Origin: Fimicolochytrium jonesii
Lineage: Eukaryota
Assembly: GCF_025526975.1 (NCBI RefSeq)
Contig: NW_026515670.1
Coordinates: 1,488,001 to 1,552,000, forward strand
DNA length: 64,000 bases
Direction: 5' to 3'
Shown: one piece after another, positions 263-28,732 of the stretch
How the letters are laid out: each line of letters starts with the position of its first letter
Numbering within the stretch: the stretch's first letter is position 1
Notes under the pieces: generated by a model
Database searches by the model: none
What the model saw: the letters and a program-made list of their open reading frames with translations, nothing else
What the model was told of the DNA's origin: nothing
Translations under genes and position numbers: made by a program

Positions 263-276
263 TCACCCCCTCCTTT
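263..276 (-). promoter_or_regulatory. Polypurine tract (plus-strand primer)
   Basis: AAAGGAGGGGGTGA on the minus strand immediately before the 3' LTR TG. Confidence 0.85.
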
Positions 277-4122: not shown

Positions 4123-5021
4123 TGGATGGGTGCAGGTTCCTTAACCGCGACATTCGCCGTGCGTATCTTGTTTGGGCAGAGTTTGGCTATGTGGCCAGGT
4201 TTACCACAATAGAGGCAAAGTTTGTTTGTGATGCGGTGTTGGCGCTCTAGCGGTGTGAGGGGTCCTCGCGGACGAGCAGCGTCAATGACCATAGGGTCGT
4301 CTGGGCGGTTGTCGGGGCTCATAAGGGTGGGGCTAGTGGTAACTGGCACATATGGCTGTCGGTTCCTGCTTTGCTCTAGACGGCGCTCAAACAATCGGTT
4401 GTCACATTGGATGGCCTGTTCCATCACGGTGTCGATTGAGGCGGTAGGGGGCATCGTGAGCATTAAGTCCTTGACGTCTTCTTTGAGGCCGCGACGGAAG
4501 GTGGCAATCAATGCCTGGTCATTCCACGACACATCGCATTGCAGCTGTCGGAATTCAGCTACATACTCTGTTGCTGCACGGGTTTGTCGAAGGTTCTGGA
4601 GCTTGTTTTCGGACGTGCGGATCCTGTCGCTGTCTCCAAAGACTGCTTGCATTTGCTGGATGAAATCATCCAGGTTCGTAAGGGAATGATGGTCTTGTTC
4701 GACAAGGGGCGCCAGCCAGGCCTGGGCGGTGCCAGTGAGGTAGGTGCCAATAGTTCGTATCTTGGTCTGATCGTTGGGGTAGCGCCTGGGTTGGAGGGCG
4801 AACATGAGCCGGATCTGGTTGAGGAACCCACGGAACTTGCTTCGGGTGCCATCAAATTTGTCTGGGAGACTGATTTTGGGTTCGGGGGCGTGAGTGGCAG
4901 GGGCAGTGGTCTGGGTTTGCGCTAGTTCGGCTTGTAGGGTGGTATTCTGCGCTCGAAGTTCGTCAATCGCATTGCACATGGCTTGCCAGGCTTCGGCCGT
5001 GAGGGGAAGGGCGTCGGACAT
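4095..5021 (-). CDS. gag: Gag (Ty3 capsid-like domain plus CCHC zinc knuckle)
   Basis: PEPKISLPDKFDGTRSKFRGF capsid motif and CLYCGKPGHIAKLC knuckle. First ATG at 5021 (the ORF track starts at GTG 5042). Confidence 0.93.
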   Translation of the reverse strand: MSDALPLTAEAWQAMCNAIDELRAQNTTLQAELAQTQTTAPATHAPEPKISLPDKFDGTRSKFRGFLNQIRLMFALQPRRYPNDQTKIRTIGTYLTGTAQAWLAPLVEQDHHSLTNLDDFIQQMQAVFGDSDRIRTSENKLQNLRQTRAATEYVAEFRQLQCDVSWNDQALIATFRRGLKEDVKDLMLTMPPTASIDTVMEQAIQCDNRLFERRLEQSRNRQPYVPVTTSPTLMSPDNRPDDPMVIDAARPRGPLTPLERQHRITNKLCLYCGKPGHIAKLCPNKIRTANVAVKEPAPIQDFAQVQLQ

Positions 5022-5072
5022 GGTGATTTGGCGTGGAGGCACAGCGGCTGGGGGTTGTTGAGCAGATCAAAC

Positions 5073-5603
5073 TGTTAAGAATGGGCAGAGCCGACGGAAA
5101 TAGAGGCGACTTGTGGTGCAGGTTGTTGACAGGTAATGGTATTCAGACCGAAACAAGAACTAGAACAAGACTAGGAAGAACTGGTGTTGATCTGCTGGGG
5201 GATCAGGAAGTGGGGAGCTCAGGGGAGGCGGCTATTTATGCTTTTCTGGGAAGGCTGGGGAAGCGTGGGGAAGCAGAAGGGTACGGAATGAGAGGGAAGC
5301 CAAGAGAAGCGCCAAGGGTGGGGGAAGCATAGAAACAGAAGACTGGGGATGGGGTGGCTACGCTGAGGCTGTGGGCGGGTACGTGGGGAAGTATGGAGAA
5401 GGGTTTGTAAGCGCCGAGTGTTGGGAGGTGTGGCTACGTGCGGCTGCGTGGAGAAATGAAGGCAGTGGCAGGTGTGGGGTAGCGCGGCTGCGTGCGGCTG
5501 CGAGGTTTGGCAGATGTCAGGTTTTGACAGGGAATTGACATTGACTGACTGTTGGGATGCTGTCATGAGGTAAGCGCATGGTATGGACGCGTCGTCCATA
5601 ACA
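5073..5603 (-). repeat. 5' LTR (531 bp) of the chromovirus
   Basis: Inverted TGTTA/TAACA termini, TATA-like ATAAATA at about 5238-5232, and a match to window bases 1-262. Confidence 0.92.
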
Positions 5604-5719: not shown

Positions 5720-6829
5720 CTAAATATGGCATTGCGTCCACCGCGAGGCTGTACGCAAGCAGCTCATCCTGGGGAGGAAACAGAGCCCATAACTCGTCGA
5801 GATGGTCCGCTCAAGTCGTGTGAGGCGCGCAAGCTCCTCTTCGGTTGGGTACTCTTCAAACGTCGCGTACTTTGTAAATTGACGGACACGACGATAATAG
5901 TGTCGCCGCTGCCCTCTCAGGAGATGCAGTACAACTTGCTTCAAACCAAGCCTTTCATTGACGTAGCGCAGAAACATTTGCATGAAATGCTCTTGTACGT
6001 TAACTTTGAGGTTTGTGAGGATGCTCGTAGCCGTGTACGCTGCGGTCTGTTGGCAATTTCGCATGCGGATGGGGGCGAATCCGTGAACATTACAGTACTC
6101 TTGAACCCGGCCGCAACTCTTGCGCGATGACCGGATTGCCGTTGTAGCCTGGATTGTTTAGTAGCTCAAATATGACACTAATGTGCTTGTCGGTGATGTC
6201 CGGGAAATCGTGTAGAGGATGATCAGCTGTGGTGGGGTGGGCAGATGTAGTAGTCAGGACATTGTTTCAAGGGAAATATACAGTGTAGTGTGCGCCAAAA
6301 ACTCACCAAGGTAGTACTTCAGGAAGAAGGTGGTGTGGCGCGCAAGGATGTGAACATTGCCGATGAATGTTCTCAGGCGCTCCCTTTGAACTTGATTCTG
6401 ATGATTCTGATTATGGATTCGATGAAGAGAAACCTTGGTGCAGGCATGCGTCTGCGGGCGGGGCCGTTGAGCAGGGGGTGGAGGCGGGGGTGGAGGCGGG
6501 GGTGGAGGCGGGGGTTCAAGCACCAGGGATCCACCCGGTGTGCTGGGAAAAGGGAAAGGATAAGAGCGGGGAGGTTCAACGGACGCTGCAGACCCCTTTC
6601 CACAGGTGAAAGCCCTCGCTGTTGGTGCTGCCCGTGTCATCGCCGGAACTCTCGCTGACCATGTCTGCAATGGCTTCGGGCAAGTGGCGCTGGACAGACG
6701 GTGGGAACTGGAATCGCGGGGGTTGCAAAGGTGTCTGCACAGTTGGCAGACGTATGGGCAACCGCGGGGTAACCGGAGCAACCTTCCTCCTCTTCCGCCG
6801 TGGTGTGGTTGATCCAGTAAATATGCCAC
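5720..6829 (-). pseudogene. Fanzor1 (eukaryotic TnpB/Cas12-like OMEGA nuclease), N-terminal WED/REC portion, spliced and frameshifted
   Basis: Reconstructed peptide: THACTKVSLHRI..RERLRTFIGNVHILARHTTFFLKYYL|ADHPLHDFPDITDKHISVIFELLN..VQEYCNVHGFAPIRMRNCQQTAAYTATSILTNLKVNVQEHFMQMFLRYVNERLGLK..LTRLERTI/LDELWALFPPQDELLAYSLAVDAMPYL. This is colinear with the Spizellomyces punctatus Fanzor1 N-terminus as I recall it (TNLKVNVQEHFMQM motif). Intron at 6227-6306, frameshifts near 6107 and 5800, next intron donor at 5719. The recognisable core is 5720-6451. Confidence 0.85.
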
Positions 6830-7546: not shown

Positions 7547-7740
7547 CTCGCGATTCGCTTTTCAACTTCAAGTCAGGATCGCTTGAGGTGTAGCCTGGAT
7601 ATGGGCACTCGCGATTCGCTTTTCAACTTCAAGTCAGGATCGCTTGAGGTGTAGCCTGGATATGGGCACTCGCGGTTCGCTTTTCAACTTCAAGTCAGGA
7701 TCGCTTGAGGTGTAGCCTGGATATGGGCACTCGCGGTTCG
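7547..7740. repeat. Tandem repeat, 61-bp unit, about 3.2 copies
   Basis: Units start at 7547, 7608, 7669 and 7730 (CTCGCG(A/G)TTCGCTTTTCAACTTCAAGTCAGGATCGCTTGAGGTGTAGCCTGGATATGGGCA). Confidence 0.97.
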
Positions 7741-8227
7741 TTATTCATCTTCCGCCATCGCCTCGCCGTCATAGTCGTGGATGTCTCGGTAAAAACCTCT
7801 CCCAGTCGTAAAAAAAAACCTCCGTGAGGAAAAAATAGATCCTGGGAGTAGGAAAAGAGCGCATCGTCGTATCAGGCAACATCGGCAGTTCGGCGTACTC
7901 ATTGTCATCGGGCAACATCGGCTGTTCGACGCAATCCTAGAGCGTGAACAAATTTCCAGTGTTTGTTTTCGTCTAGGGATTTGGTAAATATATCCGCAAC
8001 GTTGTCGATATATTTGTCAATATATTTTTCTTCTCGAGTGACATATAAATAACAGATAACCCTAGCCCCTTCCCTTTCCTTTCCTTTATCTCTTTTGAGC
8101 TATCGAGTGCTATGGCTGAAAGCTACGGTGGGAGGGGGGGATGTTCCGATGAAGAACTATATCGGGAGCGCAGTTTCTATGTACAAAAAACCCACATTCC
8201 GCTCACAACCACATGTTCACGAAATCC

Positions 8228-8570: not shown

Positions 8571-8963
8571 ATTTCTCTTATGTACACTCTGCCCCCCCAG
8601 AGAACGCCCCTTGTCGGATTTGACATTCCATCTCAGCGTCAGATGGGTTGATGTGGTGTAGAACTTCCTCAGCTGTACTTTCGGTATGGCTCCGAACTCA
8701 ATCTGGGAATCGCGGTTGGCCAGACACGTCGCCAAGGCCCGTCCGTCACATCAGGAAAATCCTACGTACTGTCAAGTTCCGGCAACGGTTGCTCCTATCG
8801 ATTTCATTGCTAATATGCATCACAAGCGCAGCAGGCACAACTACGATACTCTTTGCGAACCACTTGCGGCGACGTCGAGGCTTTGCAGATTTGTCAGGGC
8901 GAGTTATGGCCGATAAACGACGGAGACCAGATCGGGACGCGCCCGGCTGTCTACTCCCAAACG

Positions 8964-9200
8964 ATGGCCTCCAAAACGCTCCCCACCGAGCTCATTGAGC
9001 ACATTCTAGAGTACCTGCCGCTTCCCCGACGCTTTCGCTGCGCCCGTCGCCTTTCGATTGTTACATACCCGGGACCGATGCGTTCCCCTATTGCGTCACG
9101 CGGACAGATTGGGCCTCCAACAGGGGTCTGGTCTCGCTTTTGGAATGGTGGGCCGCGAGTTCGTTGTTGTTTGCGTACATGGCCGTCGCTTGTAGTGAGA
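8964..9200 (+). pseudogene. F-box plus ankyrin-like repeat gene remnant
   Basis: MASKTLPTELIEHILEYLP (F-box consensus), then in another frame DWASNRGLVSLLEWWAASSL (fungal ankyrin-like repeat). Confidence 0.55.
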
Positions 9201-9671
9201 GGGAGGGGGGTCGTCGCCCATCCTTGGTCCCTCTTAATGTTGTTGAAAATCTGAGTTCGGCACCCTCACCACACAACACATTATGGGCAAGATTCCCTGC
9301 ATGGTGTACTGTACTTAGTTCATCTGGACGAGGAGAAAACGTCAGGGGAATTTCACCTCGTGCTGTTTTGTCACCGAACATTCTATACTACTACGAGCTC
9401 CTCCTCTCCACGACGGTCGGCCCTCTGCACTCTGGGCAGGCAGTTCACAAGAAACAAGGTTGTGTGGTTGACCGACAATTCGGCCACCAGCATTTGAGCC
9501 TCGGGCTAAACGCTGCTTGATGCCTCCATACAGTATGCCCTGCCATATGCCATCTACATACCCTCGCGGGCCGCAATTGCGAGCCCCTAAGTTATAATAT
9601 CTCGCGCTGAAGGCTGTTATTGGCTGTTACTCGCGCCTACCCCCTACTCCCCCTACTCTACCCCTCCCCTC

Positions 9672-12844: not shown

Positions 12845-15124
12845 ATGAGCCCAACGCCCCGCCTCGTCCGGCTGCCGCGGGACCCAGCCGACGATGTGGA
12901 CGGGATGAGTGCTGGCGATGGGGTCCGGATGGGCGGGCTGGTGGAGGGTGTTGCGTGTCCTATCTGTGGTGAGTATGGCTGGTGTGGCAAAGTACAAAGT
13001 ACGAAGTGAATTGAAGTTGTTCCGACCAACTGAAAGTGCGTGTTGGGTGGGGACGTCTCACCACCTATGTCACATCCACAGGCGAAACAATGCTCCACCT
13101 ATCCCAACTCAACCGGCACCTCGACGACGAGCACATCCAACCCACCTCCTCCGACGACGACGGCACAAAAGATGCCGTGTTATCCTGGTTCAAAGCCGCT
13201 CAGCGGCGAGTCGCGCCGTCTTTGACTAGGGCTGCTACGGGGACGCTGAGTATCACACAACAGTCGATTAGGGGCGTGGAGGGGATTGTTGGGGGGGTTG
13301 TTGGGGCGACAACGGGGGCTGTCGGCGGGGCTTTTGAGTTGAATGGGGAGGAGGGGGGTGTGGGGTCGCCCAGTGGGAGTGGGGCGGGCACAGCGACGGC
13401 GAAGGAGTTGGAGGCAAGGGTGAGCAGGGCACATTGGCAGAAGGATGGCACCAATGATCGGTGTGTGGCGGATGGGTGTGGCAAGGTGTTGAGTTTGAGG
13501 ACGGGGAGACACCATTGCCGGAAGTACGTTCATCTTGTGAGGGGGTCAGATTCTACTCCTCGGTTGCTCGCTGCAAAGTTATCCCTGACACCCCCCCTCG
13601 CACCTGACCAGATGCGGCCGCCTCCACTGCGACACCCACTCCTCCTACCAAATGAAGCTCTCCCCATCCGCCCTCCCGGACCCAACCTCGGGCACATGGT
13701 GTCGCGTCTGCGAAGGATGCTTTACATCGCGGGCAGGCTATAAGGACTCTGTCGGGGTGTCGCGTAGCAGAACAAAGCTGTATCTACGGTTACGGAAGGC
13801 GAGAATTGATACGATGCAGATGGATGTGAATAAGTTGGAGAAGCGGTTGGAGAAGGTGGGTTTGGTTGGGGAATGTTTGTGGCTTTCGGCAGACGGGGGT
13901 TGATAGTTGGATAGTGTACTCATTGGGTGTAGGAGACCAGCTCAGCACGATCTACGCCGAGGAGAACGCACGGGTTCCGACCACGAATGGACAACGGCCG
14001 TCGCTGTCAACAAAGACGTTGGCTAGGATACGCATCCGTGAGTCGCTCATCCCCCCACCGTCACCCCTTTCAAATGCCACCATCAACCCACTGATGCACC
14101 TCCGCGTAGGCGAACAAGCAATCGTAGCCTGGGAAAACGACAGCAGCGTAACCGAATGCCCGTGCTGCAACTCGCAGTTTGGAAGCTTTGTGAATCGACG
14201 ACATCATTGTCGGCTGTGCGGGAGGGTTATCTGTGGGCAGGAGACGTGTTCCAAAGAGTTGCCGCTCACTGGTGGTATGTGTCCAGTCGCATCATATGGA
14301 GATTCACCGATTCTAAGTCACCTGACCTGTTTTTTTTTTTTCAATTTAGGACCACCAACACCAGACGCCCCAACAATCCGCGCCTGCCCTGACTGCTACC
14401 GCACCATTTCCGTACACAACAACGTACACTCGCCATCTGCAACGGCCATAGCGGCACTGTACCGTGCCATAACGCGGTATAGAGCTTCTGTGACTGAAGT
14501 GTTGCCAAAGTTTAATAATCTGTTGATGAATATGGCGTATGTGATATGAATCGTTTTGGGGGTTACTGAGGGTGGTTGCGGTTGGTTCTTACTTTTCGGA
14601 TTTAGGAATCGCGTGGTGACGGAGTATGATGACCCGGAGTACAAGCTGGCGTCGAAGTACCGCAAAGATTTGATGGAATGGTTCTCAGAGCTCGACAAAT
14701 TGGGGTATGTCTCGTATCCCGTCAACACACATATATGCACGTAATCTATTTCGCATCCTCACCCATCTCCCCCCCCCCCCCCCCCCCCCTCCTCAGAAAA
14801 CGCGTAAAATCCCACCCCACGCCCACGCCCACCACAACCCGCCTCCTAACCGCCCTCCACCTCTCCATAATCACCTTCCTTCAAACCCACATGTTTACGC
14901 TGCAACTCATGCCCAAAATCACCACCCCCAACAAAGCCCTTCCCGCCGTCCCTTCATCCTCATCGCAGAATGATGAAGAGGTTCGGGTGTTGGAGGAACA
15001 GCGACGGTTGGTGGAGGGATTTTTGGGGGATGCGTTGAGGAGGAGGAAGTTTGAGGATGCGGCGAGTTTGAGGGTTGGGTTGGAGGAGTTGGAGGGGGAG
15101 ATTTCGAGGAGGAGGGGTGGGTGA
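12845..15124 (+). CDS. PEP7: Vacuolar segregation protein Pep7/Vac1 (rabenosyn-5), multi-exon
   Basis: Spliced C2H2 finger CPICG|ETMLHLSQLNRHLDDEH, two FYVE domains (RHHCRK, RRHHCRLCG) and a C-terminal Rab-binding helix LEEQRRLVEGFL..RRKFEDA. Confidence 0.9.
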
Positions 15125-15442
15125 TGGCAATTCGGAGGCTTTCGATCCCCAGTCAGGGTTGGTATGACCCCCTCCGCCCGCCCCGAAAGGTATGAGCGGC
15201 CCCCGCCATCGAGGACACACGCTCGCTCATCAGGTCCGTCCTCGCTTTCTATGGTCACCCCCCCTTAAAGGGGTCACGCCTTTAATAAATGGTTGGGGCC
15301 GGTCCGCTAGGACCAGGAGGGGTGCAACGCCCTGCCTCCTGGGCGACCCGAGACTGCTGGTATCCAAATCTAACTGAGCGAAGCGAAGGCCAGATTCTGT
15401 ATCTCTGTACAGAATCTTATTGAGGCCTGGGGTGGTAAGATT

Positions 15443-15997
15443 TCATGAGGTAGGACTAGGGTAGTGAATCGACTCGGGACTCGGTACAGCAGGCGAGTCT
15501 CTATCAAGCAAGCGTTCCATGGCGTTGAGAATCGAAAAGGCAGCCTCTCGGGGTATTCCATGGTTAACGGGGTCAGCCAACTCATAAAGGGGCTGTCCCG
15601 ATGTAGATCTCTCGATGTTCTCTTTATGGAGGACTTCCGCCAAGAGCTGCGTGTAGTTCCTATACTCATTGATATTACTGAAAGGTTCAGAATAGAGGTC
15701 CAATCCCAGTTCATTCAGGAAATCGTCATCAGACCGCCCGTTAATCGACATCAAAGACATTAAAGTTTTCAATGGCGTGGTCCTGCGGCGACTGAAGGGC
15801 TTGGGGCACGGCTTGTGGCACGGCTTGGGGAGAAACCTGGGGCGGAACTTGTGGCGGGGCTTGCGGCGGGGCTGGAGGAGCGACCTGAGGGATGTACAAA
15901 CCTTCCAACGACTTTTGACCATTTTCACGTTCAACATACCCCATAAAAAAAAAGGGGTGATGAATAAGGAGATGAATATCTGTAGGCCGATGTACAC
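15443..15997 (-). pseudogene. Hypothetical protein with hydrophobic N-terminus and 12-bp Pro/Gln-rich repeats, probably frameshifted
   Basis: Overlapping minus-strand ORFs. One frame reads APPQAPPQVPPQVSPQAVPQAVPQ, the other gives an acidic globular C-terminus. No family recognised. Confidence 0.35.
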
Positions 15998-16130
15998 TCA
16001 CGCACTCGTGATATGTAAATCGGCCTACAGATATTCATCTCCTTATTGTACATACATACGCCTTATTGTACATATACATAATCACACTCCTGACACGTAA
16101 CGCAAATCTGCAGCATATCTGCAGCGCCGG

Positions 16131-17330
16131 CTATGGCTCAAGCGGTACGGGATTTTTCGCCATACTGGCAGCAACGCCTTCCCGCAGCTCCCTTGCCGCT
16201 CTGGCATCTTCTTCGGGGTCGTCCTCGTCGTCCGGGTTGGGCATCGCAAGCTTCCGGAACCGCTCGATGCTGATCGAGAACTCCTGGAGTTCCGCCTGGG
16301 AAACGGCGGGGCTGGCCGTCCGCGTGCTTTGACGAGCGCATTTTAACGTGTATCCGAGCCAGGTCTGGACATCGATATGGCTGGTGATTGCCGGGGAAAG
16401 GAACACTTTTCCGTTGTTGTCCACGCGGACGAACTCCCAAACGATGGAGTCCGTCACAAAACCGTAAATGGTTGCATTGTGAGAATACGGGGAGGATGCG
16501 ACGTGTTTAAGCCGCAGCTGAAAACCGATGCGTCAGTGACAATGAGCGCCGGGTCAGTCAGGCCCACTTCCTTACTTTGCGTAACATGCCACAGTAGGCA
16601 ATGATTTGCCACAGTGAGCGCTCCCCACCGGCCACCTTCGCCTCTCCAACAAACAACATCGTATGGAGGGCGTCCTTAAAGTCTTGGCCATGGCTGTGCA
16701 GTAACCAAGGAAATAATCGCCTCGCCCGCTGAGCTCCTGACCTTCGTGAATGTGGGACAGTGAGACCTCAGTCCATGTCGACATTATCTTCGCCGACTCG
16801 TCCTGTTCTCTGTTTTGAGCTTGTGCCATGACGTCCAGCAAGAAGAGATCAATGATTGTCCGGGTGCTGTTCTCGCTGTTGAGGTTCCAAAACTTGTCAA
16901 TCATTGCCCATGAGCTTTCTGCCAAAGTATTTTTATTTAGCTCTGACCTCGAGGTACTGTGCGGTGCGAGAAACGGCGAAATACTTACTGAGCCACTTCG
17001 TCGGAGAGTAGCGAGGGACATCTTCCGGTAAAGCCCAGCTGGGGTTGGTGCGCTTGACAGCTGACGTGTCCAGCTGCAGAACCCTGCGTATATCCTTGTC
17101 TGTGCAGTCTCGTACTGCCACAGAGTTCACCTTTGGAGCAAGGGTTCTCAAAATGCTGGAAAGATAAGGAAGATTTTTGAGGGCCTGCTCTTCTTCCTCT
17201 GGTAGCTTAGCGAGGAGTTCCTCGAGTTGTTGGTGGAGTTTCGTTCTGGAGCAACGGCGACTTTGTGAGAAGAAGAGGGACCCTAGTTTTTAGACGGCCA
17301 GCAGCAGGAGCAGAAAACTTACCGCTTCAT
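16131..17330 (-). pseudogene. PD-(D/E)xK restriction-endonuclease-fold protein, 4 exons, one frameshift
   Basis: GT-AG introns at 17246-17322, 16919-16988 and 16518-16575 join the ORFs in frame. Motifs SENSTRTIIDLFL, E..LSGRGDYFLGY, LFVGEAK, WQIIAYCGM, IYGFVTDSIVWEFVRVD. Frameshift near 16700. Confidence 0.75.
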
Positions 17331-17377
17331 TTATATATGGGGGAAGTCGGATATAAAGGTGGTTACGCAGCCGAGGT

Positions 17378-17767
17378 ATGTCTCAAAGAGTGTCTGGGAG
17401 GTTCGGTGAATGGGGGGGGCGACTGCGTTCTGTTGAGGTAGACATCCACGACGTCTGGTACTACACCAGGGGGTGCACTTCACCATGTGTTAGATCCCGA
17501 CATCGTATCTGTTGCCTTTCGAATTCCAACCATACGGAACCATACGGGACGACGCACCCGTACCCAAATCGTTGGATAGTAACCTTGGGATTCTTTGCTT
17601 TGCTTGTGGTCTTATGTATCTATATTACGTATTGTATCAGCGGGACTCCCACCGCAAACGAATCGTGGGCGATAACGGTCAAGGGCTGTCGGGCAGTTCT
17701 ATCTCATCATCTGCTTTGTATTGAGATGCTTACATTGATCCGGGAAGGCCCCTTTCGCGATCCTTGA
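17378..17767 (+). CDS. Possible small single-pass membrane protein
   Basis: 129-codon ORF with a hydrophobic stretch WIVTLGFFALLVVLCIYITYCI, filling the gap between the nuclease and methyltransferase genes. No homology recognised. Confidence 0.25.
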   Translation: MSQRVSGRFGEWGGRLRSVEVDIHDVWYYTRGCTSPCVRSRHRICCLSNSNHTEPYGTTHPYPNRWIVTLGFFALLVVLCIYITYCISGTPTANESWAITVKGCRAVLSHHLLCIEMLTLIREGPFRDP

Positions 17768-17795
17768 TCAATATGTGTATTGTGACTTGACGATC

Positions 17796-18646
17796 CTACT
17801 TGTGGAGTCCATCCATACGCTTCCTTGCGAGCGCAACGTATTCAGCGTTCAATTCGAATGCGAGATATCTACAGCCGGGAAGTCTACAGCATGCCATTAT
17901 CTCTGTCCCGGCCCCTGCAAAGGGAATGAGAACATTGGTTTGCATGCTTCTTCAGTATGCATAGCACTCTTGACAAGCCGTTCGGTTAGCTGCAACGGTT
18001 TTTGCGAAGGATGGGCGACTCCCTCTGATTTGCCGCAAGCCCCGCTCAACGCTGAGACTTTCATTACGTCTCGAGGCAACGCACCGTCCTCATGGATGTT
18101 GTAGGTGGTTGCAAGACTCCTTGAGTTGATACGCCCTGTAGAATCAGCAGCTCGGACCCGGCCGGGGCTGTACTTTTTGTATTCTTCAGTTTAGGCTTCC
18201 CGGACCAGATCACGATTGAACTTGGATCCAGGGAAGCGACAGAAAAGGATGCTTTCGTGCGACCGCTGGAAGGTCTTCGCCTTTGGATTGGTCTTATTCG
18301 TGTAGTGCCAAACGAGCCAGTCCACTTTCCAAGTGATGGCTTTATTACTGTGTATACGGGCAAAGATAAGGGCTAACGTGGTGGATAGGCCATAGATGTA
18401 ACATGTCCCAGTCTTTTTGAGAACACGGTGGCATTGCAGGATCCACTCTTCGCACCAAGCGAGATAGTCGTCCTCCTTCCTCTTATCGCTATCGTTACCA
18501 AAGTCCTTCCCAAAGTTGTAAGGCGGGTCACAGATGATGAGATCGGCTGACTCGGCAGGGACAGAATTGAGAGCCTTGACACAATCAGTGTGGTATATTG
18601 TGCTGTCATAGGCGTACTCTAGTACAGGTACAGGATGCTCTGTCAT
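17796..18646 (-). pseudogene. Beta-class DNA N4-cytosine/N6-adenine methyltransferase, intronless, disrupted
   Basis: DLIICDPPYN (motif IV) precedes HPSQKP and VLIPFAGAGT (motif I), then AFELNAEY. In-frame TAA at 18191-18193 and frameshift near 17938. Confidence 0.92.
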
Positions 18647-18707
18647 GTCTGCTATCTGCTATCTGATATCTGATATCTGATTCCTACTATAGGCGCCTTG
18701 GGGTGTA

Positions 18708-19310
18708 TTATACATCGATGAGAGGATCCGTACTTTTTATATCAGTCTCAACGCAGACGCATATCGGCTGATGAGTTTCCGAACTGTCTTCCCTCTTCGC
18801 TTCAGTGACAATGATAGATTGCCTTGCAAACCATCTCAAGACTTTCCACAACTTGGCCCCCACGTCGAGAGCCAGCATCAGTACAAGAGGTCCGTTGATG
18901 AGGGCGAATATGATGGCGAACCCTCTGATCCAACCGCTGCTCCAGACGCATTCAAAGTTCTCATATAGGGCCATCGGAACGGAGACCAGTTGAAAGACGA
19001 ATGTAAAGATCGCCACCACGAGAAGCCAGAGTATGACAAAAGCAGCAGCGTATTGAAGGGCAGGCCATCTTTCGTATGGCGCAGAATTCATCAACGCCAT
19101 TGAGGCGACTGCGGAGATGAATATTGTAAAGTCGGCGACTCCAGAGGCGAACGGGGCGCATTCTTGTGCAATCTTTATGCGGATGTCTTGAGCATGAGTT
19201 GAAGTGTATCCAGTGAGGCCGATAGAGACAGCGAGACGTAGGGTAGCGAGGAGGAAAGGCCAGTTGGGTCTGATCACTTTAGGGTTGAGAGGTTTGTACG
19301 GGGTAGCCAT
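18708..19310 (-). CDS. Multi-pass membrane protein of unknown function
   Basis: ORF from ATG 19310 with about four hydrophobic segments. Its stop lies 61 bp upstream of the methyltransferase ATG on the same strand. Confidence 0.55.
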   Translation of the reverse strand: MATPYKPLNPKVIRPNWPFLLATLRLAVSIGLTGYTSTHAQDIRIKIAQECAPFASGVADFTIFISAVASMALMNSAPYERWPALQYAAAFVILWLLVVAIFTFVFQLVSVPMALYENFECVWSSGWIRGFAIIFALINGPLVLMLALDVGAKLWKVLRWFARQSIIVTEAKREDSSETHQPICVCVETDIKSTDPLIDV

Positions 19311-19381
19311 TTGTGTGGGATGCTGGTTGGCATGGATCTGCTCTGCTATCGCTTCGGGTGAGGGATGATCTGTGTACTGTA

Positions 19382-19572
19382 CAGTAGGTGGCCAGATATC
19401 TGGGTACGACGGGTTCGCCAAGCCTCCGTGTGCAACCCAAAAGTCAACGACAAGGTGCCGTCAATTTGCGTACTTCTTCAGATGGGCAGGCAGGCCGGCG
19501 ACTTTTGCTGGTGGCTATGGTCGGGATGATGTGTCCTTGTCGCGTCGTACCCAGATATCTGGCCACCTACTG
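19382..19572. mobile_element. Tc1/mariner-type MITE (191 bp)
   Basis: Perfect 30-bp TIRs CAGTAGGTGGCCAGATATCTGGGTACGACG (19382-19411 and 19543-19572) flanked by TA on both sides. Confidence 0.9.
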
Positions 19573-20817
19573 TACACCGATGGCTTTCCCATTCCATCTG
19601 CTCTTAGCGCATTGCAAAGGAGAAGTCGTGGTTAATCTTCTTTGCATATCCAGCGTCTATAGGGCGGTTACCCAAGCGGACGTGGTCAGGGCCTACCCAA
19701 CCGGTCAAGATATCACCAAGCTGCCAAGAACTCTATGGACAACGTATATCCGCCTAGGCAGGGCAGACGTGCAGAACGCTATAGAGCGGGCGGTAAAACA
19801 CGCGCATCTGGATGCGATAAAGCTCCTTCTCTCGTCATGTCCCGATGCAACCTACGCCACCCTGCTCAGCAAAGTTGGGCCCCTTGAGTGTGTGGGTGAT
19901 GATGGCGAGCTTGAGCTGTTGAACTCTCCCCTCGCACATGCTAGCCGCTTGGGTAATCTGGAGACGATCAAGTTTCTGGTATCTATCGGTGCTGACGCGA
20001 ACGATGATCCATATGCATTCTCTGACGCATGCTCTTCCGGTCACCTACATGTTGTTGAGTTCTTTGTTCGCATCGGAATCAAGGATTGCAGAAGACGGTG
20101 GAGCTTCCTATACGCGTGTTTTGAAGGGCACCTGGACGTCATACAGTATCTCGTGATGCAGGGCTGGCAGGTCGAATCTGAATGCATCGGCTGGGCAATA
20201 AAAGGCGGAAGCCTCAGCACTCGTAGAGAACAGTCAGAATACCTCCATATCATTAAGTATCTCATTTCAGTGGGAGATGCTCTGGACTTCGACAACATCC
20301 TGAAGGACGCAATACGGGATGAGGCTGATTTGGAGATTATCAAGTATCTACGGTGCCGTTCATAAAGCAAGGCCCGCTGTCAATTTAATTCACCGGCTCC
20401 CTGGACGCGCCTCTCCATGATCTACGCCTAGTATCTAGTGAATGGATTCCGTTTGAGGTTGTGCTTACTAAAGCTTCTTTTCTTTCACTCAAGCGAAGAT
20501 ATAAATACATACAGCTCCCCATCCCCCCCCTTCCCGTCTATCTCTTTTTCGCTCGAGCAAAATACCTACGGATCATCGGAAGCACAACGTCCTACACACC
20601 CCAGACTAAGCATTTGCTCTCAATCCTTTTACAATTAGCCTGTACTCACGGCAAATTCTGCCTCCTTCACGCACAGAATCCCTTGCACATACACAAATGG
20701 TACGGGCAGCGCCGCAAACGGCGTTTGAAAAGGTTTTCACCCAGAGTGCACTAGTCACTTCGTGAGAAGCGTTGAGCCTAACAACCTCATACCATTCTCA
20801 GCCCAATTCTCAACACA

Positions 20818-21282
20818 ATGTCAGAAACCCAGAACTCGTCGGACATTCAAAACCCGTCAGACATTCAAAACCCGTCGGAGCTATCCAACCCAGAACAACT
20901 AGTCCACGAAATTGCGACGCAGCTGGCCGAGGAACTCGCTGCTGAGGAACAAAAGCCCATCCGCCTCGCCCGTGAAGAGGTGGACGTTCTCGCCCTCGAA
21001 AAAGAGCGTCTCGCAGAGGAGAATGCTTGCCGCCGCAACCTACTTGCCCGTCGTCGTGAGCAGCTAGCTCAAACCTTGCCTGCCTCGACGAACGACAGCG
21101 CCCACGACGGTACGCCCCTTGCCTCTCCCGTCGCGGGCAAAGACATGGATTATGATCACTTGGCCCGTAAACGCACCAAGGCCATTCTCCAACCCGGTCA
21201 GGACATCCCCATGAAACAACGCACCGTCGCCGACCTCATCAGTGACGACGGGGTTATCTACAAGATAGTGCCCCCAATGTAA
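20818..21282 (+). pseudogene. DIRS ORF1 (gag-like), truncated by an LTR insertion
   Basis: First ORF after the left ITR, with coiled-coil character. Its stop codon falls in the first bases (TGTAA) of the LTR at 21278. Confidence 0.65.
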
Positions 21283-21668
21283 CGTCAGAGGAAACGTAGA
21301 CAATATTGGGCCCTTCTGAGAGGGCTGAGAGCAGTGTATTGTAGTGAAGAAAAAAGTAAGAAGCTCTTCGCAGCAGCCGCTCGACTGACAGTTTTATATA
21401 TGGGCTGCCAGCGGGGCTTGCGTGGCTTTAGTGAGGCTTGGCGCCTTATGTAATGTATCACCGAGAGCTCGGGTGGCCAGCCCGGGTCTCGGATCAAGTA
21501 GAAGTAAAGAGATATAATATGAAATACAAGTGAAGATGAGATATCCCCAACACCTCCCTCAGATCCTGAGGAGGGCGCTGAATAAATAAGAGGTGAACTA
21601 CGAGGGATATGTGAAGAAAGGGAGAGCTCATGTTCATTTTAAAGTGTTGACGCACTTGTTCATTTTAT
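21278..21668 (-). mobile_element. Copia-like 3' LTR (21278-21552) with PPT and a short internal remnant
   Basis: On the minus strand TGAGGGAGG is followed by TGTTG...TTACA (275 bp) with an internal TATATAAAA. The superfamily is inferred from the termini and PPT only. Confidence 0.6.
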
Positions 21669-22193
21669 TGTTATGATCTCGACGACGGGGCGGAAGCAAA
21701 GTAGAGAAGACAGGGCAAGTGTGATAGGCGACAAGAGATTGTATTGGCGAAACAAGAAACAAGGACTAGAACAGGAGATGAGAAGAACTGGTGTTGATCT
21801 GCTGAGGAGGAAGGGAATGGACGAAGAGAGGCCGGCTATTCATAGATAGGCAACCCAGCAGATCAGAGAACAACAACAACAAGAGGGGACTGGGGGGCGC
21901 CAGCTATGCTCCTAGAGCATGCGTGGCGAGCGTAGAGAGCATTGCTACAGCTGCTGGCTATGGGGAAGCAGTGGGGGGTGTGGAGAAGCCAAGGGGGGAT
22001 TGGCGAACTGAGAGGAGAGAGGAGGAGTGGCGATATTGCAAGAGGATTGGCAAAATGAGAGGAGAGAGGGGGAGTGGCATTGACACTGACATTGACACTG
22101 ACATTGACATTGACATTGGCGTTTGACATTTGGCGGTTGACATTGGCGGCTGTCAGTAGGTAAGCTTATGGTATGGGCGCATCGTCCATAACA
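21669..22193 (-). mobile_element. Solo LTR related to the chromovirus at 1-5603
   Basis: TGTTA...TAACA termini, 525 bp. Shares GAAGAACTGGTGTTGATCTGCTG and GGTAAGC..ATGGTATGG.CGC.TCGTCCATAACA blocks with 5073-5603. Flanks TTTAT and CGAAC do not form a TSD. Confidence 0.88.
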
Positions 22194-23239
22194 CGAACCA
22201 CAAGTACCAGTCGTCCTGGAAGTACTTCAGTATGTGGTGTACTGAACAGCGTCTCGATCCCATTTGCGCCACCGATTTGGACGTGGTGAATCACCTTGCC
22301 TTCCTCCATCATAACGGGAAAAGCGTCAAAGTCATTGAAAGCGCGCGGTCCACAATCACCAGCACCCTCACGCTCCTTTCACCGCCCCGCCCCTTCCACC
22401 GCTCGTACCTCGCCCAGTCGATTGTAAAGGCAATGCATCTGAGAACTGGCCCCCAAAAGAAGGCCTACACAAAGATATGGAATCCGGCGACGCTGGGGAA
22501 TTATGTCGCCTCGTCAGAGGTGGACTGGAATGAGCTGCGTGCAGTGAGTCGTCGATTAGCCGTCATCATCATGCTGACTAACAAATGCCGGCCGAGCCAC
22601 TTGGCAAACCTCCATCACAACCGGTGCAAGGTGCGCCCATCTCACCTAGAACTACGATCGTGGCGACCTAAGGAATGGCGATATCAACATCAACATGGGG
22701 AAGAGGTCTTTGAAGGCCACGACTACCGCGTTATCACCGTCGCTCGCATTCCCACTCGCAACCTCGACGTCGGCGCGCTCTACCCTCGAATGATTGAGCT
22801 GCAAGGTACTCGCCGAGCGGGAATCAAGGCAGTCTTCATCAACATGCTGAAGAATTCCCCCATGGCGCCGAATACCATATCCAAACTTGTCGCCACCGCC
22901 ATGCGCGATGCGGGAATTGGTCCCGAATACACGCCGAAATTGATCTCTCACGCCGTCACTACCGCTCAATGCAACGGCGGCGTAGCCACCGAGGCCATCC
23001 GTGCCGGACGCTGGCTCCCCGGCTCCACGGTCTTCGAAACGCATTACACCATCCGCAACGACAACGGAAAGGTGCCCTCCGATGACGACGACAGCAGCGA
23101 CGTCAGCCCACGAGACTGCAGTCGCCACCTACTTCAACACGGCAGCCGCGGCGCTCACTACATTGACGAATTAGCACAACCTCGAACGGAATCCATTATG
23201 CTCTGGACGAGGAACGTAGTGCATGAGTTCAATGGATGA
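22194..23239 (+). pseudogene. DIRS tyrosine recombinase, 5'-truncated
   Basis: Frame is open from the LTR edge (NHKYQSSWKYFSMWC). Contains CRPSHL (Arg), RPKE (Lys), AGRW and FETHY (Tyr). The H-x-x-R position reads KLIS. Confidence 0.85.
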
Positions 23240-23941
23240 GGTGAGGTTGTGCTTACTATCCCACCCACCACCCGTAAGCACACCTTCTCCATACTCGCCA
23301 CCGCGCTGCCATTCCGAAACGATGATCACCGGCAATCCCCGACGATGATCACTATTTATCACTATTTATAGGGTTTTTTGGGTTCCCCTGGTGGTACCCC
23401 CACCGAATATGGCGCCCAGTAGAGAAAGGGCGCTCCCATCAACTCCATTCACACCATCCCTTACCCCCTCGGCATTAGCCATTAGCCATTAGCAGTCATT
23501 AGCTCTCGCTCCAAAGAGATAGACGAGAAGGGGGGGGGGGGGGGGATGGGGAGCTGTATGTATTTATATCTTCGCTCGAGTGAAAGAAAAGAAGCTTTAG
23601 TAAGCACAACCTCTCCTCATCCATTGAACTCATGAACTACGTTCCTTGTCCAGAGCATAATCCTCCTCTAGCTGCTATGACTGCCGCTATACGCCGGGGC
23701 ATGCTCGACACAAGGTTTTCCAGCACATCTGGCTCAATATCCTGAAATGTCTGCTGTGCAATGGCTTCTAGCTGCTCTAAAGTTGTCCGGGTTGTCCGGA
23801 GCGTCCGGCCGACGCGGTCGAGCACTTCTCTGACGCCACTGTCAAATGCGGTCTTGCTTTATGAACGGCACTGTAGTATCGCTCGGCGCAAGCCAGGACC
23901 GGATGGGTCTGAACGCTGCATGCGCTCTTTGTTCATGAAAG

Positions 23942-25060
23942 TTACAATTCACTATCAACGGTGGTGATCACCCTTTTCTCCTTTTCGTCCCACCCTCGCA
24001 CGTTGACATCATGTACCACACGAAAGTTGTTGTTACAACAACCAGGATCCTTCTTCCTTGAGGCTTTATCCGCATCACCTACTTTATACCCCATCGTGCG
24101 AAGCAATGCGACGGCCGACGGCTGATGTGTTCCGGCTGCGAAGCTTCTTTCGAAACGGTGAACATGTACGCGTGCGCCAGTAGTCCGCACTGCATTATCT
24201 TCAAGCCACATTGGGAAGGGACTGTTTTCATCTTTTTGCTCCTGGACATTCAGTTCTACTGACCGCGGGACGTGGATATGGCACCCTCCGTGAACATACG
24301 TCGCATAAATCTCCATGAGCATGAGCATAAACTCTGGGCCCCAGGACTCTGCCCGTTCTCCGAGAGTGGCGTCTGCAAGTTTCTCATGGGGTCTGTCGGG
24401 TGATGGATTCTCTGTGAAGATCGTACCGAAATGGATGATCTTGAGACGCCGCCAGATACCACGGATGTCATCATCTCCGCCTTCCATCTTGGGGATGGCA
24501 TTGCATAGGAGTGTGACAAGGAACCGCGGGACATACTCGATGTATGTGGAGCTATGCAGAGTGCGTATACGAACCGGATCTCTGCCGGTTAGAAACTTGA
24601 CGAACCCTGTATTGATTTTCTTTCCTGCTTGGGGTTCACTTGTGAACAAACTGCGTACCGACCGCACATCCATCAGATCCGGATTTGGTCTATCCGCTGA
24701 TGGTCTTTCAGCGGTTAAGAATGTCGCCAAGGGCTCGCGATGAAGCTTTTCTCCGAAGGCTTTGCCCATGAGGTTCTTAAGGAATGACTTGCCATTCATT
24801 TCCTCCAACCCCGGTCCAGATCATAGCAATGGCGTGGCGATTGACTCCCTCCAAACTCAGAGAGAGCATCGTAAGAAGGAAAGTACGGACACATTCGTCT
24901 GGCTGGATATCCGCAAGTACCGAGTTGATTTCTTGTCGCACACTGCCGTCCGAAACGGCCGGAAGTTCGTACGGTATCAATGAGGTAAGGTAATCGGTAT
25001 GTTTGTGCTCTCGCATGGTACAGTTTCTAGCATCAAAGACACCGTTCTCAACCATACGGG
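23942..25060 (-). pseudogene. D5-like SF3 helicase (NCLDV/poxvirus primase-helicase C-terminal part), frameshifted, primase domain absent
   Basis: ENGVFD..R....DYLT, Walker A WTGVGGN/GKS, SEPQAGKKINTGFVKFLTGRD, LLCNAIP, GIWRRLKIIHF. A 4-nt duplication (CATTCATT, 24793-24800) shifts the frame inside Walker A. Confidence 0.92.
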
Positions 25061-26488
25061 AGGTGGCACGTGCCTGAGTGTTTATGTGGGCAGGGTCTCT
25101 ATGGAAGTTGGCTGATGACATTGTCTGGACGAGGTTGAGTGAGAAACAGGCCAAAAAGCTTGGTGGGGCTGCTGGCTGTCAGTCGTGTCTTTTTCGCGGG
25201 GAGGGAACAGAAAGAAGGAATTGGAAAAGCGTTTGCCAATAAGAAGGGACAGCCTCCTGCTGCATGAATCTCCAAGCACGGGAAAAGGAAGGCGAACCCA
25301 ACAAACTCTGATACCACCGACCTGAAGCTTCTCCCTAGCAAACCCACGGTGGGGATTGATCAGGAGGACATTTCTCTCTACATGTACCTTCCTGGCGTCG
25401 CTGGGCCCAAATGGTAGGGGGACGTGGTGGACGCCGCCATGCAGGGCAAGAGGAGGGAGCAAAGTGGGAGGGAGGATGTTCGACATCGGCAGACACCGTG
25501 CCAAAATGTGGAGGGCACGAAAGGCCTCATGCAACATGGGAGTGTGGGGACATCATGGTGCCTGTCTCCTACATCCAAGCCTGACCTTCATCATCAGTCA
25601 GGCTCCCGGCTCAACCGGGAGTCAACCCACATGCCAGCCAACCATAAGATATCCACAATCTTGAATCGATAGACTGGGCACCCAACCGTGGTTCTTTCCC
25701 TGACCTTCCAGCCACGCCCACAATAGGCAGCCCAGGCTTCAACATATTTTGTTCAACGTCGAATTGACCTAACGATAAAATTGTATGTCAAATTTGTAGA
25801 AGGGCACGAGTCGTACGGCGTACCGTAATGGCACTGTACTAGTAACTGTACATCGGACAACGCTCGGCGGACGTCCGTTGCGGCTTTCGAACGTAAAAAG
25901 AAAGTTGACGAAACTTGGAAGCCGACTCGGAGGTACTGTACATATCTACTACTGTAGCTACTATGTACATACTACTAGTAGTAAGTAGTTCCACGGAGGA
26001 GCGGAGCCTCCCTGTCCTTGAAGGCAGGCTTTTACTTGAGTCCTTCATGATGGATTGACTGATTCGACTTCTTTTCGGTAATCACGTTCCCATCTGATCA
26101 ACCCGTTCAAAGGGACGCCTGGACATCGCAGAACTCACTGCCAGGCAGTGCCAGGCTGCCAGCTATAGCAGCGAGACTCTCGGACTGTCAAATCCACATA
26201 CATACGTTACCGAAAGATCCGTGCATCACTGGCAAAATTTGACTTTCAAAGTTCTTGTGGACTGTGGCTTTGGACTTGGATGATGGATCGCAGTGTCGTA
26301 GCACAACGGATCCAAACGTTAATTTCTAGACTTTTACTGTTAGACAGTGATCGAAAGAGAAGGTCCATGTCTCCCAGTCGGGACATTCGGAAGCCTGAGG
26401 ATATATGTAGACCACATTGCGTCGCTGCTCGCCCCTGGAAAGTTGCCCACGCCGCGGGAGAGCAGGTCAGTCACATACACTCCCGGCC

Positions 26489-28732
26489 ATGTTGTACGTC
26501 CAAGGCTTCCTCCTGCAGCCTATCGTCAGAGAAAATGTGGGGACCTTCCGCCAAGTCTCGACCACCATCATGGTCGCTTCTCTCGCCGCTATCATTCCGC
26601 CTTTCGCCTTATGGCTGCATTCGTGCGTGCTTTGGGCTCGCTTCAACTCTGCTCAACAACAGCAACAGAATTTGGCCACTCTTCCACCGGCACCCATTGC
26701 TCCGACCTCTGCCAAGGTTGACCCTGCCGGAGTACAAGTGCGTCATGTTGCCGAGAAAGAGGACAAGCTGGTGGACAGCCAGTCGGAGTCATCCGGTGCG
26801 TCTCTCAAAAGACCGGAGGTGGTCCATGGTCACGTAGCATCAGCGCCTGCCCAAATTTATCGAAGCAGTCATGGTCTTTTCCTCGAAACCTCCAACTCAC
26901 CGGGCGTCCTGTTGGGCCTCATTCGCGATCTGTGCAAACTTCGACTTCTCAGCTGCCGGTCCGACGGTACATGGGGTCCACGAACGCAGTTCGCCGTGCT
27001 GGCGCTTTTCGGCACCATCGTCGCCACGCTCTCGCAAGTCGTGCTACCGAAGATGTTTGAGATCAGCTACTCGTTGTGCAGCCTCAACGTCCCGCTGGAT
27101 GAGCTGTATCAAACGGTCGAGAGGGAAACGCTCGCCGGGCTCGCCACGGATGCTATGCGCGTCGGATCTAACAACACTCGCAGCACGCCGCTCTCCCTCC
27201 TATTGAGCCTCCGGGGCATCTCAACCCGCGTCACCCCGCGCGTCATGCACGAATCCGTTCAAGTCGATTTCGGCGAACCCTATTATGACTGCTCACAGCT
27301 AGCCACCGTGACTCCCGTCAACCGAAGCCTTACTTCCTGCCGCCTACTCTCGGACGCTATTATCAAGAACGAGGTCTCGGATTGGGCTGTGGACTCGTTG
27401 TCTGGTTTCTGGTTGCGGCCCAACGCGACTCCCGACGCTAGAATTTCAGGCAGACTCCCACTCGCGACCATCGCTAACCTCACTCAACGCGGGCAAGACA
27501 CACCAGTTGGCGGACACTTTCAACTCGTGCAAGGAGCCTGTCGGCGGAGAAGTTGGGCCCTCAGGCAGTCAGAAATCATCCAAGCAAGCGGGAGTGACCT
27601 CCAGCTGATGCGCTATTGCGGAGGGGTGCATCATTCAAACGCGTTGTACGCCTTCCCTTTCAATGTCTCTACGGCCGTCGGGAGCTTGTTTGTCGCTAAC
27701 CCTCGCCATGACGATTTCTGGTACGTCCAGCGGGACGTGAACGCGACGGTGGAAATGCAGGATGTTTACGAGGACGTCGTTACACGTTTCGGCGGGACGA
27801 TGCAGGATTGGACGTTCGACCTCCTGCAGGCCAACATGACCCACATTGCGAAGAACATGCCACCCGTCGGCAAGGACGCGTTGGTGCCACCGCAGTTCTT
27901 CTCGGTGTTTGCGCGCGCCAAGGTCGGGAACGAGACGTTAGTGGGCATCATCTACTCGTATGATTGGTCGTTTGAGAAAGATTATAAAGTTGCCGTCGTG
28001 GCGAACTTGGTTGCTGTCAGAGGGTTCAAGTTACAAAGCGGCGAACACTGGGACGCGCCGTTCAAGGATGGGCTCATAGTGGAGAAGAAAGACGCGTTGT
28101 TTACTCAGATCCAGTACGAACAGGACTGGTCCGCCGTCGAAGATCTGGCCAACAACCCCGGAGCCTCGTCCTCGCTGGCGCTACAAGACTCGGAAGACAC
28201 ATGGAGAACGAAACTGCGCAAACGCGCCGAAGGCATTCGGCAGCTTCTCGACCGCGCGGGCGATTTCACCCCGTTCATTCTGTACCGCACCGCCCTGCGG
28301 CAGGCCGCCCAGAACTCCGGCAGCAGCACCGCCGCGCATGATCTCGCCACCATCAGCTGCCGGGACTTCTCGGCTACAGATGAAGTCGGCGCCGTGCGCG
28401 TGTGGCACGTCGCTCTCGCTGCGATCCTCTTCCTCGCCGCGCAACTCCTTCGCAAGCTTGCGTTGAGTGGGAACGCGGGGTCTCATACCTTGGCGTGTTT
28501 GTCGGAAGCCCTCAACGCGACGACATCCGATTCTCATCCCACGCCCGGAAACGGAGAAGTCCATGAGAAACCCAAAGCGGGGGCCACAGGATTCGACGAC
28601 CCGGGGGACGCGGCTAGGTACCAGTTTGGTTTCGGGTGGAGGGACGGGCACAGGCATTTCGGTTTGGTAGAGACGAAGGATAGGGCGATTGAGAGGAAGA
28701 CCAGTGTGAACGAAGGCGAGGATGCCGCATAG
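26489..28732 (+). CDS. Intronless membrane glycoprotein of unknown function
   Basis: Long ORF with hydrophobic segments near both ends flanking a Cys-containing domain with several N-x-S/T sequons. Confidence 0.7.
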   Translation: MLYVQGFLLQPIVRENVGTFRQVSTTIMVASLAAIIPPFALWLHSCVLWARFNSAQQQQQNLATLPPAPIAPTSAKVDPAGVQVRHVAEKEDKLVDSQSESSGASLKRPEVVHGHVASAPAQIYRSSHGLFLETSNSPGVLLGLIRDLCKLRLLSCRSDGTWGPRTQFAVLALFGTIVATLSQVVLPKMFEISYSLCSLNVPLDELYQTVERETLAGLATDAMRVGSNNTRSTPLSLLLSLRGISTRVTPRVMHESVQVDFGEPYYDCSQLATVTPVNRSLTSCRLLSDAIIKNEVSDWAVDSLSGFWLRPNATPDARISGRLPLATIANLTQRGQDTPVGGHFQLVQGACRRRSWALRQSEIIQASGSDLQLMRYCGGVHHSNALYAFPFNVSTAVGSLFVANPRHDDFWYVQRDVNATVEMQDVYEDVVTRFGGTMQDWTFDLLQANMTHIAKNMPPVGKDALVPPQFFSVFARAKVGNETLVGIIYSYDWSFEKDYKVAVVANLVAVRGFKLQSGEHWDAPFKDGLIVEKKDALFTQIQYEQDWSAVEDLANNPGASSSLALQDSEDTWRTKLRKRAEGIRQLLDRAGDFTPFILYRTALRQAAQNSGSSTAAHDLATISCRDFSATDEVGAVRVWHVALAAILFLAAQLLRKLALSGNAGSHTLACLSEALNATTSDSHPTPGNGEVHEKPKAGATGFDDPGDAARYQFGFGWRDGHRHFGLVETKDRAIERKTSVNEGEDAA

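Follow-up and report, generated by a model that had tools for sequence, protein, structure and literature searches.

A compact group of mostly broken genes in Fimicolochytrium jonesii raises the question of whether a DNA virus once integrated there, and of what kind. The genes, which encode a D5-like primase-helicase (D5), a DNA methyltransferase (MTase), a putative membrane protein and an ankyrin-repeat protein, lie in a 64,000-nucleotide stretch of DNA (the window; RefSeq assembly GCF_025526975.1, contig NW_026515670.1, positions 1,488,001 to 1,552,000). An earlier sequence-only reading had interpreted the whole interval 15125..25700 as what is left of an endogenous DNA virus or of an undescribed large mobile element; our results uphold this for the core of four genes, but not for the 10.6-kb extent, nor for a nuclease-like gene and an open reading frame (ORF), termed ORF-X. 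The viral affinity of D5 and MTase, together with a codon shift shared by all four genes, supports a virus or mobile-element relic, and the core is very probably an inactive fragment of an endogenous DNA virus. Its genes are intron-free, tightly packed and of one foreign codon pattern; the D5, MTase and ankyrin genes are broken, and the present copy cannot replicate. As its source we tentatively propose a Polinton-like DNA element of chytrid fungi, mid-sized and present in multiple copies, to which we give somewhat less than an even chance.

Extent and composition of the foreign core

The foreign extent was placed at 17796-~25100 (3,587 bp net), because a shift in GC content at third codon positions (GC3) separates the core genes from the nuclease-like gene, ORF-X, the tyrosine recombinase (YR) of a nested transposon and the right flank. 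Pooled GC3 was 553/1036 (0.534) in the core compared with 4560/6834 (0.667) in a host reference of 14 ORF slices (Fisher p 1.6e-16). Each core gene differed from the host individually (p<=6e-4), with 0-3 of 96 host windows falling below its value; these windows overlap and are not independent. The nuclease-like gene, ORF-X, YR and the right-flank ORF were not significantly different from the host (values in Table 1). None of the four core genes contains an intron, and the core is gene-dense, intron-poor and compositionally distinct from its host. The foreign island is thus this four-gene core, smaller than first proposed, and there is no support for counting the nuclease-like gene or ORF-X as part of it.

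The four-gene block is embedded in a 1,794,109-bp contig and is therefore assembled inside host DNA. The membrane-ORF stop and the MTase ATG are separated by 61 bp, the ankyrin stop (23936-23938) and the D5 stop (23942-23944) by 3 bp, and the divergent starts of the membrane ORF and the ankyrin gene by 269 bp, or 76 bp without the miniature inverted-repeat transposable element (MITE) between them. These distances reproduce the 61, 3 and about 80 bp of the sequence-only reading, but the tiny spacers that it described throughout the island are confined to the core, those elsewhere being 465, 186 and 318 bp. Subtraction of the Tc1-like element and the MITE reduces the interval first delimited from 10.58 kb to 6.86 kb, close to the estimated 7 kb, and the halves of the ankyrin gene (771 and 63 nt), which are split by the Tc1-like element, share one frame and restore the stop at 23938 as had been reconstructed. 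The description of most genes as disrupted applies to the MTase, D5 and ankyrin genes and also, as single breaks, to the nuclease-like gene and ORF-X, but not to the intact membrane ORF; two supposed breaks of the nuclease-like gene are introns. An insertion directly behind PEP7 was not borne out: 2.7 kb separate the PEP7 stop from the beginning of the core, and neither the ends of the core nor a junction with the host were found at the locus.

No capsid, polymerase or terminal repeats had been noticed before, and our scans agree. Genes for the major capsid protein (MCP), PolB, A32, VLTF3 and RNA polymerase were not found in the part of the window ORFs that was scanned (67 ORFs or pieces with Pfam, 14 with PHROGs); nor were the MCP, minor capsid protein and A32-like ATPase of Polinton-like viruses (PLVs), for which the Pfam and PHROG profiles are general rather than PLV-specific. 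Six comparisons of end pairs gave no terminal repeat better than shuffles, and a blastn self-search returned only transposon repeats and a palindrome. A structured end at 15125-15460 was considered but found no support (z -1.65; 6/100 shuffles equally good). The YR was rejected as the core element's own integrase, since it lies inside the ends of a DIRS element and has host-like GC3. The locus is truncated, and the absence of structural genes therefore says little.

Relationships of the core genes

The D5 piece matches residues ~660-1030 of its relatives, and tblastn detected nothing further upstream; the primase and Zn finger part, about 650 N-terminal residues, is therefore lost, and the reading frame of the remainder is broken within Walker A (~24797). 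This hallmark gene of nucleocytoviruses is thus present as its C-terminal third only. Against proteins of 512-2000 aa, 13 of 18 matches formed a tight group at 42-63%, beyond which E-values dropped from 1e-38 to 1e-7; a search of the full library added further relatives. The 24 full-length members of the family (949-1060 aa, 28-99% identity to one another) combine a C962R/PPL4-like archaeo-eukaryotic primase (AEP), a UL52-type Zn finger, D5_N and a superfamily 3 (SF3) helicase over ~1030 aa. The AEP DxD motif was located by regular expression in 23/24 of them, and a Pfam match to the Zn finger was obtained for 5/12 members. AEP-SF3 fusions unwind and prime DNA, and MTases with a DPPY motif mark an element's own DNA. 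Asfarvirus C962R and poxvirus D5 primase-helicases share the AEP, D5_N and SF3 domains and are the best solved-structure matches, but they are remote (the best match of the family profile, C962R, has E 1.5e-17), and the family of the window D5 adds the UL52-type Zn finger match.

Phylogenies of D5 and MTase had been suggested as a check, and both were built. The D5 trees are FastTree trees rooted at the midpoint, with soft deep nodes. In the helicase tree, for which 147/172 proteins and 73/79 loci passed the coverage filter (the D5 of Synchytrium microbalum was filtered out), the window D5 falls within a 38-leaf clade with support of 1.0 and a stem of 0.68, and 0/72 IMG/VR loci lie inside it. 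A tree of a longer region, with all 126 proteins of at least 500 aa, 78/80 IMG/VR loci, the window piece and this time the Synchytrium D5, recovers a 29-leaf clade at support 1.0, again with 0/78 IMG/VR D5 inside. The family joins (support 0.958) a 57-leaf set that contains the Synchytrium D5, and a 91-leaf group likewise includes 0/78 IMG/VR D5. The distance from the family is 2.86 to the Synchytrium D5 (24-32% identity) compared with 2.96 to the nearest IMG/VR D5. The named members of the clade are all chytrids, namely Blyttiomyces and two Geranomyces species (4 named clusters among 30 proteins); the other two named clusters of the 30 proteins are a generic JGI primase label and S. microbalum, which lies outside the clade.

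The nearest Atlas clusters of an intact D5 relative are viral D5 (0.94-0.98), most of the top ones Nucleocytoviricota, and the best IMG/VR matches to the family reach 25-36% (50/78 named GVMAG by hand count). Viral contigs were scanned with the D5 piece of the window, with the closest MTase and with a close-family alignment, and no relative appeared; a scan with the protein P0005 gave one match (32%), and one with the sister group gave three giant-virus-like loci (29-32%). A metagenome scan returned one close D5 (L079, 70%) and three remote matches. Over 175 codons the window D5 and L079 differ at 44, 32 and 105 first, second and third codon positions, the pattern expected if the gene was still under selection while it diverged and was broken only afterwards. 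The L079 contig (1-1703) is likely chimeric, as its 47%-GC D5 stretch runs, within 1.7 kb, into 76%-GC, bacterial-looking DNA. Near-identical pairs of family members (99% and 89%) sit on differently sized contigs. Two further members, P0123 and P0157, are 34% alike and are both listed with a longest contig of 321,979 bp, so that either one host scaffold contains two elements or a giant virus possesses two D5 genes. From its position in the trees, the D5 may mark a deep lineage of its own in chytrids, possibly an undescribed one. In the literature searched, which had most subscription papers outside its scope, no description of the clade was found; the accessible part of PMC11296320 mentions chytrid matches to a PLV D5-like helicase and does not describe them.

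In the MTase, DPPY precedes FxGxG, which lies in another frame past a frame break (~17935), and an in-frame stop (18191-18193) adds a second lesion. Its PDB matches are RsrI/MboIIA/CcrM-like. The closest relatives, at 79% and 71%, are both intact, and the next stand at 48-57% among the best 120 of 3100 matches. In a tree of 202 sequences (43/121 proteins, 79 IMG/VR loci and 80 prokaryote loci), the window MTase forms a group with its two close relatives (support 1.0), and the next large node takes in 78/79 viral and 0/80 prokaryote loci with support of 0.80 on a very short branch. Patristic distances give a clearer separation, at 1.24 to the nearest viral and 1.63 to the nearest prokaryote sequence (medians 1.35 and 1.86), which places the MTase nearer to giant-virus than to prokaryote MTases. 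Judged by its sequence, it is giant-virus-like yet forms its own lineage. Four Woesearchaeota metagenome-assembled contigs (L162-L165) carry an MTase at 49-52%, at the giant-virus level and above other prokaryotes; these are possibly mis-binned viral contigs. A literature search joining chytrid N6-methyladenine, giant viruses and horizontal transfer retrieved no paper. Both genes show viral affinity, with D5 in its own clade and the MTase in its own lineage; a nucleocytovirus source is not established, as D5 stands apart from all sampled IMG/VR D5.

The 200-aa orphan is likely a membrane protein with four helices, as suggested by a low-confidence model (predicted local distance difference test, pLDDT, 58.7). 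Its homology search recovered just itself among 219 candidates, and the model had no BFVD fold match at E<=0.001. An F-box on the ankyrin protein was not supported, there being no match in the first 107 aa. When the island genes other than D5 and MTase were compared with the 244 collected loci, nothing was found except one weak ankyrin match.

Source of the core and competing explanations

The core matches PLVs in its replication gene class, a D5 family of AEP-SF3 architecture, and has an MTase alongside, as is common in them. In the accessible part of 10.64898/2026.06.19.733378, PLVs often have AEP-SF3 fusions, most have MTases, and numerous chytrid genomes contain PLV-type ATPases; the available supplement of PMC7017919 gives five A32 loci over five scaffolds for Spizellomyces. 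AEP-SF3 PLVs and the chytrid PLVs of the S. punctatus group resemble the core in a primase-helicase fusion with a DNA MTase and in being compact, intron-free and integrated, but differ in their MCP, minor capsid protein, A32, integrase and terminal inverted repeats (TIRs), which were not seen at this locus. A small source genome is suggested by the rarity of D5-MTase proximity in IMG/VR, where a D5 occurs in the fetched flank of 2/151 MTase loci and this MTase at 0/81 D5 loci (the loci are partly redundant), compared with a distance of 3.6 kb in the window. PLVs are units of 15-40 kb that frequently occur in many copies per genome, and for the core's D5 family the 99% and 89% pairs and the contig size shared by P0123 and P0157 hint at multiple copies.

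As family knowledge suggests, the DNA of the living element would have been copied by its single AEP-SF3 primase-helicase, and the MTase would methylate adenines in the element's DNA and so shield it from nucleases of the host or of co-infecting viruses. The ankyrin and membrane proteins would be directed against the host cell. The lost part, past the D5 break or past the MTase, would have contained the capsid and integrase genes. After integration, truncation would have been followed by the MITE insertion and that of the Tc1-like element with its DIRS and long terminal repeat (LTR) remnant, and by decay.

Several observations weigh against the Polinton-like source. We infer the multi-copy status and the co-occurrence of the genes from contig sizes only; the near-identical D5 pairs could stem from two isolates, and two D5 genes on one 322-kb contig would equally suit a giant virus. 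The sole fetched locus of the family, L079, is the one that enters 76%-GC, bacterial-looking DNA. The nearest named D5 outside the family, that of Synchytrium (P0162), is numbered between two MCP genes. The viral affinity comes from two genes, D5 and MTase, the ankyrin gene being placed by composition, packing and its intron-free state, and 37/79 of the broader MTase relatives are named GVMAG (hand count). No capsid, ATPase, integrase of its own, TIR or target duplication was found for the core at the locus. Finally, in the available supplement of PMC7805220, lake PLVs that match the Spizellomyces PLV already described (from S. punctatus) indicate pPolB and not AEP-SF3, a replication gene unlike that of the core.

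It is rather unlikely, though it must be weighed seriously, that a fungal giant virus, Mycodnaviridae-like or of some other nucleocytovirus lineage, integrated here and left the core as a four-gene scrap, with D5 as the ordinary core primase-helicase of the virus. D5 is a nucleocytovirus hallmark with mostly Nucleocytoviricota among its top Atlas clusters, the neighbors of the MTase are giant-virus contigs, and the D5 family groups (0.958) with the 57-leaf set that includes the MCP-flanked Synchytrium D5. That flanking is deduced from accession numbers, XP_031021970.1 falling numerically between two entries of the MCP phylogeny in PMC7017919. Blyttiomyces has four MCPs in the accessible Supp. 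Fig. 10 of the same paper, but its D5 accession is not adjacent to them. The D5 distance to Synchytrium (2.86; 24-32% identity) is hardly below that to the nearest IMG/VR D5 (2.96), no IMG/VR D5 of 78 falls in the family or the 91-leaf group, and MTase and D5 are seldom neighbors in giant-virus contigs. Mycodnaviridae, which according to the available part of PMC13533422 reach 350 kb (compare the 322-kb contig) and have left fossils in chytrids, and related endogenous giant viruses of zoosporic fungi share with the core the likely host group, a D5-like gene, a gene-dense, intron-poor mosaic and fossils amid host genes; they differ in that neither MCP nor PolB nor any further core gene was seen in the four-gene block, whose D5 sits on its own long stem. 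The fundsalphaviruses (PMC7017919, accessible part) are likewise endogenous in fungi, with D5 and an S-adenosylmethionine-dependent MTase, stops, frameshifts and nearby retrotransposons. They are defined, however, by Pithovirus-like PolB and RNA polymerase genes, which together with the SNF2 helicase were not seen at the locus, and none of their 14 hosts listed there belongs to the named genera of the D5 family.

It is improbable that the core derives from a chytrid transposon or plasmid-like element which lacks a capsid and replicates itself, consisting of an AEP-SF3 replicase with virus-derived cargo. Such an origin would agree with the lack of structural genes at the locus and with a D5 family that is absent from IMG/VR although genome and metagenome assemblies contain diverse members of it; on the other side, missing structural genes weigh little at a truncated locus, neither ends nor a recombinase belonging to the core were found, and Pfam misses most PLV capsids. 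There is also a slim chance that the genes arrived separately in a transposon-rich dumping ground. Four transposon insertions within 4.5 kb and a nuclease-like gene of separate, host-type origin speak for this, as does the lack of demonstrated co-occurrence, no contig size being common to the best 120 MTase matches and the D5 family by eye. Against it stand four adjacent intron-free genes with the same GC3 shift, which YR and both flanks lack, spacers of only 3, 61 and 76 bp, and the lack of a second D5 or MTase match anywhere in the 64-kb window.

What remains at the locus is a dead fragment, and fossils of DNA viruses have already been published for chytrids. Its value is as a marker for 24 full-length primase-helicases in a clade without a member among the sampled IMG/VR loci. 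A doubtful but conceivable extension is that the relic marks an undescribed, still-intact multi-copy family of chytrid DNA elements, whose ~1030-aa primase-helicases form a separate deep clade that defines it, either PLVs, perhaps parasites of Mycodnaviridae that took D5- and MTase-type genes from them, or capsid-less self-replicating transposons. DNA viruses of fungi are, to our knowledge, barely known. If the genes do lie in complete mid-sized elements, culturable chytrid hosts (Geranomyces) would allow one to ask whether fungal giant viruses have Polinton-like parasites.

Neighboring genes, nested transposons and the wider window

Table 1. Features of the locus in window coordinates, with strand and supporting evidence.
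Feature	Position	Strand	Evidence and properties
Host PEP7/rabenosyn-like gene, left flank	13015..15124	+	Pfam FYVE and Rbsn
ORF-X, P/Q-rich, across two frames (one frame break)	15443..15944	-	GC3 0.61
Palindrome between ORF-X and nuclease-like gene	15963..16047		34-nt arms, 97% complementary
Nuclease-like gene, three introns, eukaryote-type	16131..17330	-	GC3 0.63
Beta-class N6/N4 DNA MTase pseudogene, intronless	17796..18646	-	Pfam N6_N4_Mtase 9e-23; GC3 0.55
Orphan ORF, 200 aa, intact (likely membrane protein)	18708..19310	-	GC3 0.53
MITE between divergent starts	19382..19572		Perfect inverted ends, 34-nt arms 100% complementary including TA; TA duplication
Ankyrin-repeat gene, intronless, 5' part	19580..20350	+	Pfam Ank_2 3.6e-13; GC3 0.55
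Tc1/mariner-like element in ankyrin gene	20351..23873		27-nt arms 93% complementary; TA duplication
DIRS1-like YR retroelement within Tc1-like element	20441..23661	+	Inverted ends and internal complementary region 23173-23258; repeat pairs 95-96%; YR GC3 0.65
LTR-like remnant (TG...CA) inside DIRS1-like element	21278..22193		Related to Ty3/Gypsy element at 1-5603
Ankyrin gene, 3' part including stop	23876..23938	+	Same frame as 5' part
D5-like AEP primase/SF3 helicase gene, C-terminal third (D5_N end and helicase)	23942..25100	-	tblastn; GC3 0.51
773-codon open frame, right flank	26411..28732	+	Host-like codons, GC3 0.68; intron-free orphan with hydrophobic stretches

The nuclease-like gene, which had been counted among the virus-like genes, has three canonical GT-AG introns (17322-17246, 77 nt; 16988-16919, 70 nt; 16575-16518, 58 nt), host-like GC3 and eukaryotic nearest clusters. 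Two of its apparent breaks fall on introns, so that part of its disruption is splicing, and one frame break is left near 16690. The top Atlas clusters of its last exon are eukaryotic (0.95-0.96, a recognition value flagged as weak). Its motif pattern makes it a candidate fungal PD-(D/E)xK or CR-REase-like nuclease; a weak Atlas lead (0.83) points to a cluster of which 29% of the members carry PDDEXK_12, and no nuclease match was obtained in Pfam or in PDB. The gene is likely a separate, host-type gene outside the foreign core. Pfam and PHROG contained no family for ORF-X or for the right-flank ORF.

The interval 20351-23873 is a three-level nest, in which a Tc1-like element contains a DIRS1-like element that in turn has an LTR-like remnant in place of its reverse transcriptase (RT) region. 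What we take to be a Tc1 transposase remnant lies near 23640-23858, where Pfam gave only HTH_33 (E 0.13). The DIRS1-like element has a gag-like ORF (20782-21282) and the YR (22160-23239; Phage_integrase E 0.054); no RT/RNase H ORF was seen in it, its middle being filled by the LTR-like remnant. This remnant shares 45 nt (87%) and 52 nt (87%) with the Ty3/Gypsy element, and no target duplication was seen around it.

Elsewhere, the window encodes an axonemal inner-arm dynein (top PDB matches DNAH7 and DNAH3) and further genes with short introns. Together with the PEP7-like gene, the Fanzor fragment described below and the chytrid names among the D5 relatives, these make a zoosporic fungus the probable host. 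Pieces at 8814-9517 (+), for which Pfam gave no match at E 0.001, resemble an F-box/ankyrin-type gene. The Ty3/Gypsy element at 1-5603 (-) is young, with open gag and pol frames and LTR copies 99% identical over 262 nt, and its LTR is adjoined by a fragment of a Fanzor (TnpB-like) gene at 5723-6157 (-), which matches Spizellomyces punctatus Fanzor1 with an E-value of 2e-16. A 61-bp tandem repeat at 7547-7752 is present in three or more copies (94-99%).

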